Shown here: one piece after another, positions 3,425-18,429 of the stretch | Numbering within the stretch: the first letter of the stretch is position 1 | Layout of the letters: every line of letters begins with the position of its first letter | Virus record (IMG/VR): IMGVR_UViG_2671180676_000004 | Location: 2,122-66,121 of that record | Source of the DNA: a virus | Taxonomy: Duplodnaviria > Heunggongvirae > Uroviricota > Caudoviricetes | Reading direction: 5' to 3' (one strand) | DNA length: 64,000 nucleotides | The notes under the pieces: model-generated | Database searches by the model: none | Told to the model about the DNA's origin: nothing | The model's input: the letters and a program-made list of their open reading frames with translations, nothing else | Translations under genes and position numbers: made by a program

Positions 3425-6400
3425 CTATATCTGCCCACCTACTCCTTTGAACTTTTCAATAAACGTGACGATTTTCTGGAAAACCGTCTGTTTTTTCGTT
3501 TTATATTGCGGGTTTAACGGACTAAGTTTTGGTAATGTCTCGTTTAATTCTGTGCCATTTTCGGTGGCGTATTCGCGTTTTAAAGACGTGCGAATATAGC
3601 GTTTCGCCGCCTCTTCATTGAGATTTTCTTCTTTAATCAACGCTTCTGCTTCACGTAGCTGTTCGTGTTGAGCAAAGGTAAAGAACGCGTCAATGATGCT
3701 GGCTTTGTCTGGTAAATCATCCAGGTTCGTTTGCTGAATAAAATCGACCACCAGGCCCTCTTTAGCACGGTTCCCTAGGCTTGAACGAATTAAGCGTTTG
3801 ACCTCTTCGATCATTTCGCCCTTGCCTTTATTTTGTCTGTTGTGTTCGAAAATCAGTCCAAGGATATAATCCAGGTTTATTTCCTGAGACTTCAGCAAAT
3901 CGACCTCAAAAACTACGTCATCCCAGTCAGTGGTTGATTTCTCTTTTTTCTCAGCTTCTTTCTCACGGCGCTGCCAGTCGCGAATATCGTTATAGGCAGA
4001 ACGATAATCCTGAATCTTGCGATCAGCAGGGAGACGAATTGTTTGCAATTCAGCGAACTTTTCATCATCCACATAATGTTCTGCTTTGAATTTTTCTACC
4101 GCAACAGGATCGCTAAGATCGATTTGTTGCAGGGCTTTTAGCGTGGCAAATTCATCATAGTTTTGCAGGATGTTCTCGGCACGCAGGTATTCGCCAAACA
4201 GTTTAACGAAGTCTTTCTTCTCTTTTTCACTTTCAATACTGGCAGGGTCAGGGAACCGTTGTTCCAGTTCTGAAACTACTGCCATAAAGCCGCGTTTAGC
4301 TTCACCTGTAGCAGCATCAGTAAAGCCTTCCATATACTCTGCATAACTCTTTTCTAACACTACATTTTTGGTGTTTTTGTCACCAAACAGCGTTATGGCA
4401 TCGATGGTTGAGCGTTCCAGATCGCGGAAAGTGACGATATTACCGAAGGTTTTAGTCGCGTCATAAATGCGGTTGGTACGGGAAAATGCCTGCATCAGGC
4501 CGTGAAAACGCAAGTTTTTATCGACGAATAGCGTGTTTAATGTTGGAGCATCGAAGCCGGTTAAAAACATCCCCACGACGATTAACAAGTCAACATCCTG
4601 ATTTTTAACCCGCTGAGCCAGGTCCCGATAGTAGTTCTGAAAACCCTTGCTATCAGTGCTGAAATTCATTTGAAAATGGTCGTTATACTCACGAATTGCA
4701 GCGTCCAGAAACTCTTTAGCACTGCTGTCCATTGCACTGGTATCAAAAGATTCATCGGATATTTCACCAATGGCATTTTGTTCTTCATTAGCGGCAAAGG
4801 AGAAGATTGTCGCAACACGCAGTGGTTTATAGGTAGCAGATTTATTAGCTGCTTCCTCTTGTAACCGTTTAAACGTCGCGTAATAGGCTTTCGCGGCATC
4901 CACGCTGCTCACTGCCAACATAGCATTAAAACCTTTTGAGCCAGGGAAGGTACGGTGGGTTTTCTGGCGGAAATTATTCAGAATATATTGCGTGATTTCC
5001 TGAATACGCATGGGATGAAGAAACGCCTGCTGATTTTCAGCCGCACTCAGTTTTTTCTCGTCAGTTTCTGTCTCTAAAGACTTAAACTGTGGCCGCACAT
5101 CGTTGTAGTCCACCTTGAATTTGAGCACTTTTTCGTCACGAATCGCATCGGTAATTACATACGAATGCAATTCACGACCAAATACGCTGGCGGTTGTTTC
5201 TGAGCCTAAGGCGTTTTCCGGGAAAATAGGGGTGCCGGTAAAACCAAACTGATAATAACGTTTGAATTTCTTCTTCAGGTTTTTCTGCGCTTCTCCAAAC
5301 TGGCTGCGGTGGCATTCATCAAATATAAACACCACTTGCTGATTATATACAGGCAGGTCGCTTTCTGCTTTCATCAGGTTATTGAGTTTCTGAATAGTAG
5401 TGACGATAATTTTGTTATCGTCCTTATCCAGATTTCGTTTAAGGCCTGCGGTATTTTCCGAGCCGTTGACGCTGTCTGGCGAAAAACGCTGATATTCCTT
5501 CATGGTCTGGTAATCGAGGTCTTTCCTGTCGACCACAAAGAAGACTTTATCAATAAAGTCCAGCTCTGTTGCCAGACGCGCGGCTTTAAAGCTGGTGAGG
5601 GTTTTACCAGAACCGGTAGTGTGCCAGATATACCCACCGCTTTCCGGTTTTGACCAGTTCTTCGCTGTAAAGGAACTCTTAATTTTCCACAGAATGCGCT
5701 CGGTGGCGGCAATCTGGTACGGTCGCATCACCAGTAGCGTCTGACTACTGTCAAAAACGCTGTAGTTCACCAGAACATTCAGCAGAGTATGTTTCTGGAA
5801 AAAGGTAGCGGTAAAGTCTTTGAGGTCTTTAATCAGCGTGTTGTCTGATTTCGCCCAATTCATGGTGAAGTCAAAACTGTTTTTATCGCGCTTTGTGGTG
5901 TTGGCAAAATAACGGGTATCAGTGCCGTTGGAAATGACGAACAGCTGCAGATACTTAAACAGGGAATTTTCGCTGTTAAAACTCTCTTTACTGTAACGAT
6001 GTATCTGGTTGAAAGCCTCACGAATCGCCACCCCGCGTTTTTTTAGTTCGATTTGCACCAGCGGTAAACCATTAACCAGGATCGTGACGTCATAACGGTT
6101 AGCATGAGAACCCGTCTGTTCAAACTGCTGGATAATCTGCACCTTATTGCGCATGAGATTCTTTTTATCTATCAAATAGATGTTCTCAAGTCGCCCGTCG
6201 TCAAAAATAAAGTCGCAGATATAGTCGATATGGATTTTACGGGTTTTATCCAGAATACCATCGCTGGGGTTGTCCAGATACTGCTCCGTGAAGCGCCGCC
6301 ACTCGCTGTCATTAAACATCACACCATTGAGGCTCTGAAGCTGTTCCCGAACATTGGACAGCATTGCCGACTGTGATTTTACGGAAATAAATTCATAACC

Positions 6401-6541
6401 CTGATTCCGCAGGTCCTGAATCAGTTCACGTTCCAGGTCCGATTCGCTCTGGTAGCTGTCGCTTGTTTGCTCAGCTTTGATGTACTTATCAAGGACGATA
6501 AAGTTATTGGATTCAGCAATGGTGTGTGTTTGATGAGTCAT
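3425..6541 (-). CDS. hsdR: type I restriction enzyme R subunit (type IC, EcoR124I-like)
   Basis: 1038-aa ORF; SF2 helicase motifs (TGSGKT Walker A, DECH box); last gene of minus-strand M-S-R order; length typical of type IC HsdR. Confidence 0.9.
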
Positions 6542-6663
6542 AGCGCATCCTTTGTGCCGCCTGGCAAGAGCCGGAAGGGCGTTAAGAGTGACTTCCGGCG
6601 CGTAAAAAAATAGTCTATATACTGACCGGGTGTTAAGGTGGCCCGATCGGTAGCAATGGTCAA

Positions 6664-7902
6664 TTAATTACTGACAGTTTCAGGTTTCGGGAAACTGAAC
6701 AGTAAATCACGGTAGTATTCGTATTGTTTCTGGCGCAACTCGATTTCACGCGGGAGACCTTCGGTGATGGAGTTGGTCAGGGTGTCGAATTTATCGAGCA
6801 GAGCAGATATTCGCTCTTGTTTCTGTTTATCAGGCAATGGCACTGGTAATGTTTTTATAATATCTGCATTCAAGTTACTGACCGACCCGCTATTGATTTT
6901 ACTTTCCCAATAATTTTTCACCTTTTTTGATGAAAGATAGTGATACAGATAATCAGCATTTAATTTTTCACCAAAATTGCTGATTGATGCCCATCCATCA
7001 TGGATAGCTCCGGTTATCCTTAAAATATATGGTCTGCCAAAGCTCATAGAGTTAGAAATGACGAAATCACCGGGGTTCAAGATTCGCGATTTTTGGGCAC
7101 CCTCTGCAGTTATTTTTTGTAAGGTTTTGTCAATGTATTTAGAGCCGGGGATAGTATCTCCGATTTTAATCCATGGGATACCATTTCCTTGTTCAGTAAG
7201 ATAATTAACAATTGGCCTGGGGGATGCCCCACGTTGTATTTTGGCTACTTCTCCCAATGCCTTCCACTCAACCTCACCCTCTTTAAAACTCAGCAACTGG
7301 TCGCGATAGTAGTTGTACTGTTTTTTACGCATGTTAAGCTCAGCGGTAAGCTCAGCGGTAAGTGCAGTAAACTTATCCAGAATCCGAACAATTTCAGACT
7401 GGATGGCAAGGGATTTTCCCGGGGCGCTGGGACAAGGGATGGGTATTTGATAGTTTAAAATTGCATCTTTACTGCCTCGAGGCATCTTTGCCCCTTTAGC
7501 GTGCTGCATACTGTAAGAAAAAAATGAATCCGACGATAATGCATAGTAGAGATATTCTGGACTAATAATTTTTTTACAGTCTGCTAAAATGCGTATAGCA
7601 AGGACATCACCACTGCACCCGCCATTATTCTCCGCCATCCAAACTTTCTTTAAATATGGGCGAATATTACCTAAAAGAATATCACCTGGCTCATAGGCAG
7701 TTAAACGTGCCGTATTAGGCTGATAGGTGGCGTCAATGCGACCGCCTTTATCAGCAAGGAGATTATCAACGCCAACGAATGAAGTGGCATCAAGTTTATC
7801 AGCATCAACTTTGGTTGTTGAATACCCGGCGATATCGCCCACTGCTTTCCACTCAACCTCAACCCCATCCAGCAATTTTTCCAGATAACTCAACTCGCTC
7901 AT
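6664..7902 (-). CDS. hsdS: type I restriction-modification specificity subunit (type IC)
   Basis: 412 aa; two target-recognition domains separated by conserved central region containing TAELTAEL and followed by conserved C-terminal region ending [13 protein letters not shown]; start overlaps hsdM stop. Confidence 0.85.
7337..7360. repeat. 12-bp tandem duplication (2 copies) encoding TAEL-TAEL in hsdS central region
   Basis: AGCTCAGCGGTA repeated at 7337-7348 and 7349-7360. Confidence 0.85.
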
Positions 7903-9461
7903 TTCTGCACCTCGCAGCCTTCAATTTCAGCCACAATCGCATCAATATCTTTACGCAACTGGTCGATTTTGCTGACCGTGGTTTTCAGCTCTGCATTCAA
8001 CTCAGCGATATCGATAATTTCGCGAGTATCTTTCACTTCAACATAGCTGCTCACCGACAGGTTATAGTCATTAGCAACAACAGTCTCAAACGCAACAGAT
8101 TTCGCCAGATGAGCAACATCTTCCTTGCTGGCAAATACCTGCATAATTTTTTCTATATGGGCATCGGTCAGAATGTTGTTGTTAGTCTCTTTTTTGAACA
8201 GTTCGCTGGCATCAATAAACTGAACTTTGGTATCCGTTTTATGTTTAGACAGCACCAGAATATTGACGGCAATGGTGGTGCCAAAGAACAGGTTCGGTGC
8301 CAGTGAAATCACGGTTTCGACATAGTTATTGTCAACCAGATACTGACGGATTTTCTGCTCCGCGCCGCCACGGTAAAAAATGCCCGGGAAGCAGACAATC
8401 GCAGCACGACCTTTGGCAGAAAGATAGTTCAGCGCATGTAATACAAACGCAAAGTCAGCTTTGGATTTGGGGGCCAGAACGCCAGCCGGGGCAAAACGTT
8501 CATCGTTAATCAGCGTCGGGTCATCGCTGCCAATCCATTTCACCGAATACGGCGGGTTAGAAACGATGGCATCAAACGGTTTTTCATCTCTGAAGTGCGG
8601 CTCAGTCAGCGTATTGCCCAGCTTGATATCAAACTTGTCGTAGTTGATGTTGTGCAAAAACATGTTCATACGCGCCAGGTTATAGGTCGTATGGTTGATC
8701 TCCTGACCGAAAAAGCCTTCTTCGATGATGTGGTCATCGAACTGCTTTTTCGCCTGCAACAACAGCGAACCGGAACCTGCTGCCGGGTCGTAGATTTTGT
8801 TAACGTGGGTCTGGCCGTGCATTGCCAATTGTGCAATCAGCTTAGAGACGTGCTGCGGTGTAAAGAACTCGCCGCCTGACTTACCAGCATTCGCGGCATA
8901 GTTAGAAATCAGGAACTCATAGGCATCGCCGAACAGGTCAATCTGATGTTCGTTGAAGTCACCAAGTTTTAACCCTTCAACCCCTTTCAGAACCGCAGCC
9001 AGGCGGGCATTTTTATCTTTAACGGTGTTACCCAGGCGGTTACTGGTGGTATCGAAATCAGCAAACAAACCTTTGATGTCAGCTTCTGAAGGATAACCGT
9101 AAGCAGAACTTTCGATAGCAACGAAGATGCTGTTTAAATCTGCGTTCAGTCTGTCATTGGTATTTGCTTTCGCCGCTACGTTGCAGAAAAGCTGACTGGG
9201 GTAGATGAAGTAGCCTTTAGTTTTGATGGCATCGTCTTTAATGTCATCAGTAATTACGCTGTCATCCAGTTTCGCATAACAGATACTGTCATCACCGGCT
9301 TCAATATAGCTGGAAAAATTTTCGCTGATAAAACGGTAGAAAAGTGCGCCCAGAACGTATTGCTTAAAATCCCATCCATCGACCGAACCCCTGACATCGT
9401 TAGCAATTTGCCAGATTTGACGATGAAGCTCTGCACGTTGTTGAATACTTGTCATTTTCAT
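7899..9461 (-). CDS. hsdM: type I restriction-modification DNA methyltransferase subunit
   Basis: 520 aa; N6-adenine methyltransferase motifs (NPPY at the catalytic site, AdoMet-binding DPAAGSGS); first gene of operon. Confidence 0.9.
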
Positions 9462-10587
9462 CCACTTATTTCAGGCTTATGTAATTGGCGGTGATTCTAC
9501 AGCAACTTGGATGCTTTAGCAGTTCGGACATTAGGCAACGAATGACCTAATTAGAGCTTTTTGGAAAAGCGGTATTGTCGGTGCGATGATAGCTATGTTT
9601 GGGTGCGCGATGGTGCAATACAATGACGGTGAAAAGGTAAGCATCCAGTCTGATGGCTGGTATGGGCTGGATAGCCTGCAAAAAACCGCAGATAAAGCCT
9701 GTCAGCAATATGGAAAGTCTAAAGCCGTATATCAGCATAGCGCGAACGCTAATCCACATCTCGCGCCCGGCACGGGCGTTCAGAACACTATTTGGAAATG
9801 CGAACCATAACGCAGGTTGGCTTTTTACATCTTGGGCCGAATACTGATTCCGCGCTAAGTTGTTTGTGCGGAAGTGACACTGTGGAGCTTAGAAATAGTA
9901 AATACTGGTGGGCAACAAATTGAGCCTTCACACGCTCACCAGCACACACAAAAAATGGTTAAACAGCAAGGGAATTAATATCTCATCGCGACATTAAATA
10001 AGCCAGCGCACGCCTCTGTTTATCACTGACTTGAAAAACCATATCAGAACCACGATGAAGACAATCGCCAGCACTTGGCTAAGAACAGGCGCATTTAAAA
10101 ATGCACTTAGAAACTGAAAAAATACAATCATCAGGGTAATCCTCGTCTAATGTAAAGCTGTGTGCTCTCACGTTGACGTAGAAACCCAACCTCTATATAG
10201 TTGGATTCGGTGAAAGAAAGTCGTTAACGTGAACTTACGGCACATGTTTTCGGTATAAAAATCAGGGAACTGTGAATTCCTTGATGTAGTTGGGGCCTGT
10301 AATGCAGGCCCTATCTATTAATGTCATGATTACATCTCAAATTTTCTCCTTATCATTATTATTTAATAAAATTCAATTAATATAATATCCATTTCCTGTG
10401 TGTGCAAACACAGTATGAGGAAAATGGCCCCGTTGCAAGTGCATAACTTTGTGGATAACTCTGAAGGCGAATTTACATTTCGGCGCACCGCAAGCCAGAT
10501 AAGCTGTGCGCAAAAAGCAATGGGGTGAGAAAAAAACTTTGAAGATATTGCGGCGACTAAATAATAGCCGTTATTCAATTATTCTGG

Positions 10588-10851
10588 ATGGGATTTAATA
10601 TGAACGAATGGAACATAGCAGCCAAAAGCCAGGAAGAAAGGAATAAAGTTAACGTTGACCTGGCTGCCAGGGGGGTTGCCTACAAAGAGCGATTGAACAT
10701 ACCCGTCATAGCGGAACAGGTAGCCCGTGAGCAACCTGAGAACCTGCGCACCTATTTCATGGAACGGCTACGGCACTACCGGCAGTTAAGCCTCCTGCTG
10801 CCAAAAGGAAACGATCCGGTATATCAGAAAGAAGATATAGCCAAAAAATAA
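10588..10851 (+). CDS. hypothetical small protein
   Basis: 87-aa ORF (alternative ATG at 10600) directly upstream of UmuD'-like gene; no family recognised. Confidence 0.3.
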
Positions 10852-10949
10852 CGCGCCACCAGGCGAGCGCAAAGCATCGCGCTATTGCACACTTCAAGCA
10901 TCTTTAATGTATACTGTATGGATAAACAGTACTCTGAGGTGAAAACGCT

Positions 10950-11339
10950 ATGGGCTTCCCTTCTCCTGCGGCGGATTATGCTGAGAGTCGTATTTCTCTT
11001 GATCAGCAGATAATTAGACATCCTTCAGCGACCTACTTCTTGAGGGCAGCTGATAGTCATCATCGTGAGGGAATATTACAGGGTGCATTGCTGGTGGTCG
11101 ATTCCTCACTTACCCCGGTTGATGGTTCTCTGCTTGTATGCGCTCTGGATGGGGAATATCGCGTAAAAAGATACCGGAAGTATCCACGTCAGCATCTGGA
11201 GGATTTGAGAACCGGTAAGAAGGAAGCATTGCCAAAGGATGACGATGGATGCACGGGCAGCAATGCCGTGTTTGGTGTGATCACTCACATTATCAACGAC
11301 GCAAGAAGTGGCGAGTTTGATGATTGTCCCGTGATGTAG
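10950..11339 (+). CDS. UmuD'-like S24-family peptidase, naturally lacking the N-terminal cleavable segment
   Basis: 129 aa beginning M-GFPSPAADY, the sequence that follows the Cys24-Gly25 self-cleavage site in E. coli UmuD; candidate Ser (ADSH) and Lys (RVKRY) dyad positions retained; no umuC partner adjacent. Confidence 0.6.
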   Translation: MGFPSPAADYAESRISLDQQIIRHPSATYFLRAADSHHREGILQGALLVVDSSLTPVDGSLLVCALDGEYRVKRYRKYPRQHLEDLRTGKKEALPKDDDGCTGSNAVFGVITHIINDARSGEFDDCPVM

Positions 11340-11375
11340 GAGAACTGATTAGGCGGTGCAATGCACCGCCTTTTA

Positions 11376-12476
11376 TCACACTGCGCGGAATGCGATCTCG
11401 CCAGGTATTACTTCGCCTTGCCAATACATTTGGGCAGCAACGCGATCTGCGAGGTCACGATAAATAGCCGTAAATTCGCTATCTGGACGACTAATAACGG
11501 TTGGTGTTCCGTTATCCAGATCTTCACGAAGAGAGATATGAAGTGGCATTTGGCCTAACAACTGCGTGTTGTATTTCTCGGCCAGTTTCTGTGCGCCACC
11601 GGTGCCAAAAATTGGCTCGTGATGACCGCAGTTACTGCAAATATGCACACTCATGTTTTCGACGATACCCAGTACCGGCACTTCGACTTTTTCGAACATC
11701 ACAATGCCTTTCTTCGCATCGATCAGCGCGATGTCTTGCGGCGTAGTTACCACAACCGCACCAGTTACAGGAATGTTCTGCGCCAGCGTCAACTGAATAT
11801 CACCAGTGCCCGGCGGCATATCGAGAACGAGATAGTCCAGATCAGGCCATAGAGTTTCCTGCAACATCTGCATCAGCGCCTTGCTGGCCATCGGTCCACG
11901 CCACACCATTGCATTGTCGTCGGTGACCAGATAACCAATAGAGTTGGTTGCCAGGCCATGAGACATGATAGGTGCCATGTGAGTACCGTCCGGTGAGGTT
12001 GGACGTTGGTTTTCCGCGCCCAGCATGGTTGGAATTGATGGACCATAGATATCGGCATCCAAAATACCAACTTTCGCACCTTCAGCAGCCAACGCCAGTG
12101 CCAGGTTTACCGCCGTGGAGGATTTACCCACGCCGCCCTTGCCTGAGCTGACGGCGATAATGTTCTTAACGCCATTAATGCCTGGTTGGTTTTTGACGCG
12201 CTTAAGCGTGGCAATGTTGTACGACAGCTTCCAGTCAATAGCCTTTGCGCCAGTGATACGGAGCAGATCACCACTACATTGCTCTTTCAGGTCTTCAAAA
12301 GGCTTATTCCACACGAAAGGCATGATTAGTTCGACATGCAGTGTGTCATCCATCAACGCAACATGGTGTAACGCTTTAAGCGTAGTCAGGTTGTGTTTCA
12401 GGGTTGGGTGCTGAAAATTAGCCAGCGTACCGGCTACCATTGCTCTCAGGGCATCCGGCGATTTGGACTCGCTCAT
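11376..12476 (-). CDS. apbC: Fe-S cluster carrier ATPase ApbC/Mrp
   Basis: 366 aa; P-loop GKGGVGKS; CxxC pair; divergent from metG as in Escherichia chromosomes. Confidence 0.9.
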   Translation of the reverse strand: MSESKSPDALRAMVAGTLANFQHPTLKHNLTTLKALHHVALMDDTLHVELIMPFVWNKPFEDLKEQCSGDLLRITGAKAIDWKLSYNIATLKRVKNQPGINGVKNIIAVSSGKGGVGKSSTAVNLALALAAEGAKVGILDADIYGPSIPTMLGAENQRPTSPDGTHMAPIMSHGLATNSIGYLVTDDNAMVWRGPMASKALMQMLQETLWPDLDYLVLDMPPGTGDIQLTLAQNIPVTGAVVVTTPQDIALIDAKKGIVMFEKVEVPVLGIVENMSVHICSNCGHHEPIFGTGGAQKLAEKYNTQLLGQMPLHISLREDLDNGTPTVISRPDSEFTAIYRDLADRVAAQMYWQGEVIPGEIAFRAV

Positions 12477-12633
12477 CCCGTCTCCTTTATTTTAATTTGC
12501 GCAATTGTCGCCTTGTAGTGTACTCCAGCTACGACATTTAATCATTTATGAGAAATGCTGTTATCACATGGCAGACATAAGGCCATTTTGTTACTATCAA
12601 GCCCCTTTTCACTACAAAGAAGTAATGCCTACT

Positions 12634-14667
12634 ATGACCCAAGTCGCGAAGAAAATTCTGGTGACGTGCGCGCTGCCGTACGCTAACGGCTCAATCCACC
12701 TCGGCCATATGCTGGAGCACATCCAGGCTGATGTCTGGGTTCGTTACCAGCGAATGCGCGGCCACGAGGTTAATTTCATCTGTGCCGACGATGCCCACGG
12801 TACGCCGATCATGCTGAAAGCACAGCAGCTTGGTATCACACCGGAGCAGATGATTGGCGAAATGAGTCAGGAACACCAGACTGATTTCGCAGGCTTTAAC
12901 ATCAGCTATGACAACTATCACTCGACGCACAGCGAAGAGAACCGTCAGTTGTCTGAGCTTATCTATACTCGCCTGAAAGAGAACGGTTTTATTAAAAACC
13001 GCACTATCTCTCAGTTGTACGACCCGGAAAAAGGCATGTTCCTGCCGGATCGTTTTGTAAAAGGCACCTGCCCGAAATGTAAAGCGCCAGATCAATACGG
13101 CGATAACTGTGAAGTCTGCGGCGCAACATATAGCCCGACTGAATTGATCGAGCCGAAATCGGTGGTTTCTGGCGCTACCCCGGTAATGCGTGATTCCGAA
13201 CACTTCTTCTTTGATCTACCTTCTTTCAGCGAAATGTTGCAGGCATGGACCCGCAGCGGCGCGTTGCAGGAGCAGGTGGCGAACAAAATGCAGGAATGGT
13301 TTGAATCCGGCCTGCAACAGTGGGATATATCCCGCGATGCGCCTTACTTCGGTTTTGAAATTCCGAACGCGCCGGGCAAATATTTCTACGTCTGGCTGGA
13401 CGCGCCGATTGGCTACATGGGTTCCTTCAAGAATCTGTGCGACAAGCGCGGCGATACCACCAGCTTCGATGAATACTGGAAGAAAGACTCCACCGCCGAG
13501 CTGTACCACTTCATCGGTAAAGATATTGTTTACTTCCACAGCCTGTTCTGGCCTGCCATGCTGGAAGGCAGCAACTTCCGCAAGCCGACCAACCTGTTTG
13601 TTCATGGCTATGTGACGGTGAACGGCGCGAAGATGTCCAAGTCTCGCGGCACCTTTATTAAAGCCAGCACCTGGCTGAATCATTTTGACGCTGACAGCCT
13701 GCGTTACTACTACACTGCGAAACTCTCTTCGCGTATTGATGATATCGATCTCAACCTGGAGGATTTCGTTCAGCGTGTGAATGCCGATATCGTTAACAAA
13801 GTGGTTAACCTGGCGTCCCGTAACGCTGGCTTTATCAATAAGCGTTTTGACGGTGTGCTGGCAGGCGAACTGGCTGACCCGCAACTGTATAAAACCTTCA
13901 CTGATGCTGCTGAAGTGATTGGTGAAGCATGGGAAAGCCGCGAATTTGGTAAAGCTATCCGTGAAATCATGGCATTGGCTGACCTGGCTAACCGCTATGT
14001 CGATGAACAGGCTCCGTGGGTGGTGGCGAAGCAGGAAGGACGCGATGCCGATCTGCAGGCGATTTGCTCTATGGGCATTAACCTGTTCCGCGTGCTGATG
14101 ACGTACCTGAAGCCGGTACTGCCGAAACTGACTGAACGTGCAGAAGCATTCCTGAATACAGAACTGACCTGGGATGGTATCCAGCAACCGCTGCTGGGCC
14201 ATAAAGTGAATCCGTTCAAGGCACTGTATAACCGCATCGATATGAAGCAGGTTGAAGCACTGGTGGAAGCATCCAAAGAAGAAGTGAAAGCCACAGCCGC
14301 ACCGGTAACTGGCCCACTGGCTGACGACCCGATTCAGGAAACTATCACCTTTGACGACTTCGCCAAAGTTGACCTGCGCGTGGCGCTGATTGAAAACGCA
14401 GAGTTTGTAGAAGGTTCTGACAAACTGCTTCGCCTGACGCTGGATCTCGGTGGTGAAAAGCGTAATGTCTTCTCAGGCATCCGTTCCGCTTATCCAGATC
14501 CACAGGCACTGATTGGTCGTCACACCATTATGGTGGCTAACCTGGCACCACGTAAAATGCGCTTCGGTATCTCTGAAGGCATGGTGATGGCTGCTGGCCC
14601 CGGCGGGAAAGATATCTTCCTGTTAAGCCCGGATGCTGGTGCTAAACCTGGCCACCAGGTTAAGTAA
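12634..14667 (+). CDS. metG: methionine--tRNA ligase
   Basis: 677 aa from ATG 12634 ([26 protein letters not shown]); HIGH-type and KMSKS motifs; zinc knuckle CPKC...CEVC; C-terminal tRNA-binding domain; intrinsic terminator at 14690-14713. Confidence 0.95.
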
Positions 14668-18117: not shown

Positions 18118-18429
18118 ATGAAAAAATCATTGGTTCTTGGTCTGGACAAAGACCAGAAGAGAAAAGAGAAGCCTGCACTGGTTGCTCAATTAACTTTGCT
18201 AGACATCGTTGCCAATGGAACTTCTATTCGTCTGTTCCGTGAAACAGCGGTGTCTTTCGATAAAAACACCTTTACTCGTTATGTAATGAATGTTCGTCGC
18301 CAGCGTGGAAAAGGATGGGTGGCATTTCAAAGAATGTGGCCGGAACATCAGCTCGAACTGGCCTTGATGGAAGTTAACCGCGTGGCCCAGCAAGAAATTC
18401 AGAGAGCATCAGTGATGGCAATAGCCTGA
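18118..18429 (+). CDS. hypothetical protein
   Basis: ATG 18118; palindrome 18093-18107 upstream; terminator 18464-18492 downstream. Confidence 0.4.
   Translation: MKKSLVLGLDKDQKRKEKPALVAQLTLLDIVANGTSIRLFRETAVSFDKNTFTRYVMNVRRQRGKGWVAFQRMWPEHQLELALMEVNRVAQQEIQRASVMAIA

Follow-up and report, generated by a model that had tools for sequence, protein, structure and literature searches.

A gene for a lone UmuD'-like protein, which begins at the very position where UmuD of E. coli is cut and has no umuC gene beside it, raises the question of what such a protein could do for the mobile element that carries it. The gene, humD, lies at positions 10950-11339 on the plus strand of a 64,000-nucleotide stretch of viral DNA (the window) and encodes, from an ATG start codon, a UmuD'-like protein of 129 amino acids that is devoid of an N-terminal arm. 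In the ORF translation the product opens with MGFPSPAADYAESRISLDQQ, and the start, M-GFPSPAADY, coincides with the site of the cut in E. coli UmuD (Cys24|Gly25). Upstream of the ATG the frame reads ...TVL*GENAM, with a TGA located four codons ahead and with no ATG, GTG or TTG codon between this TGA and the humD start, so that an in-frame start further upstream is ruled out and the arm cannot be restored. Direct reading of the sequence identified a Shine-Dalgarno motif, GAGG, at 10937-10940 (plus strand), 9 nt 5' of the ATG. The MGFPSP start is present in 106 of the 120 close HumD homologues, most of which are 126-130 amino acids long. In comparison to humD of phage P1, dN/dS was estimated to be 0.055 (dS 0.83); the gene is under purifying selection. 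Minus-strand ORFs that overlap humD (e.g., 10824-11021) had no support and were set aside.

The protein matched the NCBIfam equivalog model for HumD, NF051876, along its entire length (positions 1-129 of a 129-position model) with a score of 217.7 bits (cutoff 120, E = 3.8e-65), and it scored 86.6 bits against the UmuD subfamily model PRK10276, which is below the cutoff of 110. The sole Pfam match was to the Peptidase_S24 family, PF00717 (39.8 bits versus a cutoff of 23.3, E = 4e-10), and the label in PHROGs is "UmuD-like protein." Sequence identity was 91% to P1 HumD and 99% to the homolog in phage Cyrano. RefSeq entries for near-identical copies use the name HumD. In the plasmid pUTAK-6-1, the sequence of which is 100% identical to window positions 10300-11400, the copy is labelled only "S24 family peptidase." Judged by these matches, the 129-amino-acid protein belongs to the known HumD family and is not a new orphan. 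The first-pass annotation, which had described the gene as an orphan, was thus correct in that umuC is missing, but not in the sense of a novel gene, since the family is both named and characterized. The humD gene studied here is an ordinary copy of a phage gene first described in P1, the product of which has the same length of 129 amino acids, the same M-G-F-P-S-P start and the same C-terminal tail.

We aligned HumD to UmuD from E. coli K-12, with which it shares 44% identity over the part that runs from Gly25 to the C-terminus, and to solved UmuD' structures. In these alignments, Met1-Gly2 of HumD correspond to Cys24-Gly25 of UmuD, while Ser36 and Lys73 correspond to the catalytic dyad residues Ser60 and Lys97, with a local serine motif of A-D-S-H where the canonical form in UmuD is G-D-S-M. 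The UmuD-type arm with its Ala/Cys-Gly scissile bond was found neither in the alignment nor in the upstream frame. Three of the proposals made in the first-pass annotation are supported by these results: that the protein starts at the cleavage position (Gly2 on Gly25), that it represents a pre-activated UmuD'-like form with no cleavable arm (the in-frame TGA four codons upstream) and that the serine and the lysine of the dyad are retained (Ser36/Lys73, motif ADSH). The alignments to UmuD confirm the truncation point and the presence of Ser36 and Lys73, with no upstream start that would bring the arm back.

Residues 2-118 matched the UmuD' structure 1umu in the PDB (E = 6.8e-23), and the best solved relatives were all UmuD' structures (1umu, 1i4v, 8gmt, and 1ay9), as compared to a far weaker match to the solved catalytic domains of LexA. 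Based on the match to 1umu and the PF00717 score, HumD is predicted to adopt the fold of the S24 catalytic domain. The AlphaFold2 model, which was built from a family alignment of 70 sequences, was unusable (mean pLDDT 45.6, pTM 0.35), and the fold assignment therefore rests on the 44% identity to solved UmuD'. A repressor of the LexA/CI type was considered and rejected, because the 129 residues comprise the S24 domain alone and no N-terminal DNA-binding domain; the match to the lexA model TIGR00498 (29 bits, cutoff 110.95) covers the C-terminal domain only.

HumD thus has the S24 fold in common with UmuD/UmuD', the accessory subunit of Pol V in E. coli, and like umuD it is likely to be regulated by LexA, as suggested by a predicted LexA box. 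In contrast to UmuD, it lacks the 24-residue arm and the Cys-Gly cleavage site, it is not encoded in an operon with umuC, and it contains a 4-residue insertion ahead of the last strand as well as an acidic C-terminal extension of 10 residues. The UmuD-like proteins MucA, ImpA, SamA, and RumA are similar to HumD in that they are SOS-controlled accessory proteins located on mobile elements, in this case plasmids and ICEs. However, these four are arm-bearing precursors that require RecA*-dependent cleavage and are encoded in operons with their own UmuC-like polymerase (PMC7092418), unlike HumD.

The structural region of the window shares 95-98% identity with the Escherichia phages CMS-2020a, PhiR41_1 and Cyrano. 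Its identity to SSU5, a Salmonella phage, is about 81%, and the region surrounding humD has its best matches among E. coli plasmids with a size of about 110 kb. These matches identify the window as an SSU5-like E. coli phage-plasmid rather than P1. A literature search for SSU5 together with UmuD returned no paper. DNA homologous to P1 was identified in two blocks, one at 9937-10836 (upfM to hot, 81%) and the other at 10901-11338 (the LexA box and humD, 85%), with homology ending at the humD stop codon. In the GenBank record for P1, the order is hot, LexA site, humD, and the site is described as a "LexA binding site in the regulatory region of lxr and humD." The P1 locus resembles the one studied here in that a LexA box is located at the equivalent place, hot is located upstream and umuC is absent. 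They differ in that the divergent, LexA-regulated gene lxr (573 bp; positions 3540-4112 of the P1 locus, L002), which separates hot from humD in P1, is missing here, where only about 65 bp (10836-10901) are left. They also differ downstream of humD, where P1 has phd-doc and the window a captured apbC-metG pair, and in the carrier, which is P1 in one case and an SSU5-like phage-plasmid in the other.

The captured pair, located at 11376-14667 directly after humD, consists of chromosome-like second copies of apbC/mrp and metG. The apbC/mrp copy is encoded on the minus strand and is 95% identical to the K-12 protein (about 89% at the nucleotide level), while the metG copy encodes 677 amino acids from an ATG at 12634 and is 99% identical to the K-12 protein. 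The divergent arrangement is the same as on the E. coli chromosome, and Cyrano and plasmids of about 110 kb contain the pair as well. It is unusual for a phage-plasmid to carry a full methionyl-tRNA synthetase. In Cyrano, humD is followed by apbC and metG as in the window, but hot is absent. Just upstream of hot and humD, at 3425-9461 on the minus strand, we identified a complete type I restriction-modification system with genes for HsdR (1038 aa), HsdS (412 aa) and HsdM (520 aa). According to the P1 record, the flanks of the hot-humD region in that phage resemble DNA found beside plasmid hsd loci (EcoDXXI, R124/3). A tRNA scan and an Rfam scan of the window returned no hits. The part of pUTAK-6-1 that extends beyond the window (loci L012 and L013) encodes DnaE, a 3'-5' exonuclease, RecA, NrdAB, thymidylate synthase (ThyA), DfrA51, a DNA ligase, four tRNAs and an AbiGi-like protein.

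The ORF ahead of humD (10588-10851, plus strand) had been noted in the first-pass annotation as a small gene of unknown function. The ORF exists, but its function can be assigned: the product matched the Pfam family PF06440, DNA_pol3_theta (107.6 bits, cutoff 34.6), the NCBIfam theta model PRK10969 (97.4 bits, cutoff 97) and PHROG 1105, and it is 88% identical to Hot of P1. [quoted passage not shown]" The comparison with hot of P1 yielded a dN/dS of 0.11. In P1, Hot (Chikova and Schaaper, 2005; structures with epsilon) is encoded at the same position relative to humD, and no notable difference was observed; the start in RefSeq, which is the second ATG at 10600 and gives 83 amino acids, corresponds to the "alternative start" in the P1 record. 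Hot is documented to replace theta and to stabilize epsilon (PMC2528190). Together with DnaE and the exonuclease of pUTAK-6-1, the hot gene makes up an alpha/epsilon-like/theta set, and Hot may work with the polymerase core of the element itself.

A search for LexA boxes, a check proposed in the first-pass annotation, identified TACTGTATGGATAAACAGTA at 10912-10931 (no strand assigned), upstream of humD, as a strong predicted site. It differs from the LexA consensus TACTGTATATATATACAGTA by three mismatches, all within the central spacer, has no equal elsewhere in the 64-kb window (0 expected from 100 shuffles) and aligns with the annotated humD/lxr LexA site in P1 and with the site in Cyrano. 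Predicted LexA boxes also precede HumD relatives with identities as low as 50-70%, namely those of an N15-like Klebsiella phage-plasmid, a P2-like Citrobacter prophage and two other prophage ends. A sigma-70 promoter-like site for humD (TGCACA, an 18-nt spacer and TATACT; 10886-10915, plus strand) matches the consensus at 9 of 12 positions in a scan that scores consensus matches only and that recovered four such sites in the region versus 2.5 expected from shuffles. The -10 hexamer of this site, TATACT, overlaps with the LexA box. Immediately 3' of the hot stop codon, the consensus scan recovered a GC-rich hairpin at 10852-10871 (minus strand) that resembles a terminator only when read on the minus strand; it occupies the place of the divergent lxr gene in P1, which is absent here. 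Another terminator-like hairpin, at 11351-11374 on the plus strand, consists of a GC-rich stem of 9 bp and an AAU loop followed by UUUU, and is located between the convergent humD and apbC genes. Its predicted folding energy is -21.6 kcal/mol (z = -4.98), and none of 200 shuffled sequences was as stable. A second match to CTGT-N8-ACAG, CTGTTCCGTGAAACAG at 18232-18247, is probably not a LexA box, because the spacer is rich in G and C and chance alone can account for two matches of this kind (18 of 100 shuffles).

A hidden umuC partner for humD was ruled out by tblastn searches with K-12 UmuC, which gave no hit in the 64-kb window (best E = 0.27), in the remainder of pUTAK-6-1 or in the other loci examined; the first-pass annotation, which had noted that no umuC-like gene is located nearby, holds for all of these sequences. 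The lack of such a partner is the rule for the HumD family and no peculiarity of this copy. In every context examined (P1, N15-like, P2-like, SSU5-like, and P22-like), the relatives of HumD were found in temperate phages or phage-plasmids, with LexA boxes upstream and no umuC.

The P1 protein has been studied experimentally. P1 HumD reportedly dimerizes and binds both E. coli UmuC and RecA filaments, and is said to restore UV mutagenesis and survival when it replaces UmuD', and mutagenesis in recA430 lexA(Def) cells. Its expression is also said to be poor, and good complementation to require a high-copy plasmid, which suggests that bulk mutagenesis may not be its natural role. P1 HumD has been published as a functional homolog of UmuD' with a supporting role in SOS mutagenesis (McLenigan et al., 1999, J Bacteriol 181:7005), its ability to complement UmuD' is also described elsewhere (PMC7092418), and the entry for humD in the P1 GenBank record reads "DNA repair; functionally complements E. 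coli UmuD'."

The best explanation for the locus, to which we assign a probability of roughly 0.85, is that it represents a P1-type hot-humD module in which HumD is a pre-processed form of UmuD' that serves the UmuC protein of the host after DNA damage. This explanation draws on the published account of P1, transferred to the present protein by the 91% identity. Under this model, humD would be repressed by LexA and derepressed upon DNA damage, and dimers of HumD, already in the UmuD' form, would assemble with host UmuC, RecA and ATP into a Pol V-like translesion polymerase. Since HumD would be made in its pre-processed form, the slow RecA*-dependent cleavage of UmuD would be bypassed, giving an advantage in timing. 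Damaged DNA, whether of the element or of the host, could then be replicated more readily, while Hot, from the gene just upstream, would bind and stabilize the epsilon proofreading subunit. As found, this humD is one more copy of a gene characterized in 1999 and matters little in itself; what it adds is a case in which the hot-humD module of P1 has moved into an unrelated SSU5-like lineage with a DnaE, an exonuclease and a RecA of its own. Besides the poor expression of P1 HumD, two observations are counterpoints to the host-UmuC model. One is that the element, unlike P1, encodes its own DnaE, 3'-5' exonuclease and RecA, which makes other partners possible. The other is that HumD has a conserved acidic tail for which the UmuD' model offers no explanation.

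The tail comprises residues 122-129, EFDDCPVM (codons at 11315-11336, plus strand), and has no counterpart in UmuD. As [GA]EFDDCPV[MI], it is nearly invariant in the 120 close homologs. Beyond these, we examined the representatives of clusters at 50% identity obtained in an exhaustive search (P0121-P0269), of which 74 proteins were usable and were classified as arm-bearing if at least 8 residues precede GFPSPA (n = 45) and as arm-less if they start with M-[GA]-F-P-S-P (n = 29). Related tails (GEFDDTPF, DEFDEIPCI, FEFDERPCI, and others) were identified in 10 of the 29 arm-less and in none of the 45 arm-bearing representatives, counted with a regular expression that was written after the data had been seen. 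Counted from the C-terminus, the tail is in register with the tip of E. coli SSB, MDFDDDIPF, which is a resemblance only.

The same proteins were used to examine the conservation of the Ser-Lys dyad. Among 122 aligned sequences (the 120 close homologs, mostly with identities of at least 67%, the query and K-12 UmuD), the position equivalent to Ser60 is occupied by Ser in 77, Thr in 43 and Ala in 2, and the preceding Asp is variable, while the Lys equivalent to Lys97 is kept in 119. The G-D-S-M motif has turned into x-[ST]-H-[FYH] in the close HumD homologs. In the set of representatives, both Ser and Lys are kept in 41 of the 45 arm-bearing proteins, usually as G-[DE]-S-M, versus none of the 29 arm-less proteins (Fisher p = 1.3e-16), a comparison in which the query's own cluster, which keeps both residues, is excluded from the 29, fragments or mis-called genes are probably present among the representatives, and the alignment is imperfect around a one-residue gap, although the motif strings still plainly show the loss of G-D-S-M. 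The pattern implies that peptidase chemistry is not needed in the arm-less lineage, and because the arm-less relatives lose the dyad, Ser36 and Lys73 of the present protein are probably vestigial or structural rather than catalytic.

A doubtful but conceivable reading of these patterns is that the arm-less HumD-like proteins constitute a distinct lineage of non-catalytic "pseudo-peptidases," in which the tail, [DE]-F-D-D-x-P-x-[MIF], is a new interaction handle. The tail would then mimic the C-terminus of SSB and dock onto proteins that bind the SSB tip or, alternatively, contact RecA or UmuC. If true, phages would possess a way of assembling or directing translesion synthesis that is not available to chromosomal UmuD'. 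The decay of the dyad and the SSB-like tail are modest leads, which could explain why a lone UmuD' gene is so frequent in temperate phages.

The first-pass annotation had suggested that the protein could be a regulator of host translesion synthesis or SOS, or a decoy. Such a modulator would titrate host UmuC, UmuD or RecA filaments, e.g., by forming HumD/UmuD heterodimers, and would thereby damp or retime SOS mutagenesis or the UmuD-dependent checkpoint of the host to the benefit of the element. The lack of a cognate umuC, the conserved acidic tail in the family and the divergent arrangement of humD with dinI, which codes for a modulator of RecA filaments, under shared LexA boxes in other elements are in line with this idea. 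We nevertheless consider it improbable, since the only experimental data, which concern the 91%-identical P1 HumD, report positive complementation of UmuD', and the options of a regulator or decoy have less support than the positive role, together with host UmuC, that is described in the literature.

It is likewise improbable that HumD in SSU5-like phage-plasmids works mainly with DnaE, the 3'-5' exonuclease, Hot and RecA of the element, e.g., by tuning its Pol III-like core on damaged templates, and not with host UmuC. UmuD and UmuD' bind the alpha, epsilon and beta subunits of Pol III, which agrees with such a role, as does the presence in pUTAK-6-1 of genes for NrdAB, ThyA and ligase besides dnaE, the exonuclease gene, recA, hot and humD. 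However, humD is also present in P1, N15-like and P2-like phages, P1 is reported to lack a polymerase of its own (PMC2528190), and Cyrano keeps humD in the absence of hot. This distribution indicates that the gene is not dependent on a polymerase encoded by the element.

Far less probable is an active S24 peptidase that acts in trans and, as part of a heterodimer, cuts, e.g., UmuD or LexA of the host or the repressor of a phage. Cleavage of UmuD can be intermolecular, and both Ser36 and Lys73 are present in this HumD; the Lys is shared by 119 of the 122 aligned sequences. Against this stand the substitutions of the nucleophile (Ser 77, Thr 43, and Ala 2 of 122), the loss of G-D-S-M and the dyad counts in the representatives (0 of 29 arm-less versus 41 of 45 arm-bearing), which indicate that catalysis is not conserved in the arm-less lineage. 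Finally, although both umuC and the arm are missing, the notion that humD is a decaying, 5'-truncated and functionless remnant of a umuDC operon is effectively refuted by the conservation data, with a dN/dS of 0.055 relative to P1 humD, the M-G-F-P-S-P start in 106 of 120 homologs, a Shine-Dalgarno motif, promoter-like site and LexA box of its own and a curated equivalog family, NF051876, all speaking against it.

The divergent humD-dinI arrangement across LexA boxes was observed in P2-like and N15-like elements (L005, 7439-8390; L008, 7682-8384; L017, 5762-6390), and in two of these lineages humD is preceded by an overlapping ORF of 79-80 amino acids with no Pfam match. In L008, positions 7682-14557 contain a mirror-image duplication with the order dinI-humD-sopB-sopA followed by sopA-sopB-humD-dinI, for which one possibility is an assembly fold-back. 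This element may be an N15-like linear phage-plasmid, and a related locus, L010, encodes a protelomerase (TelK).
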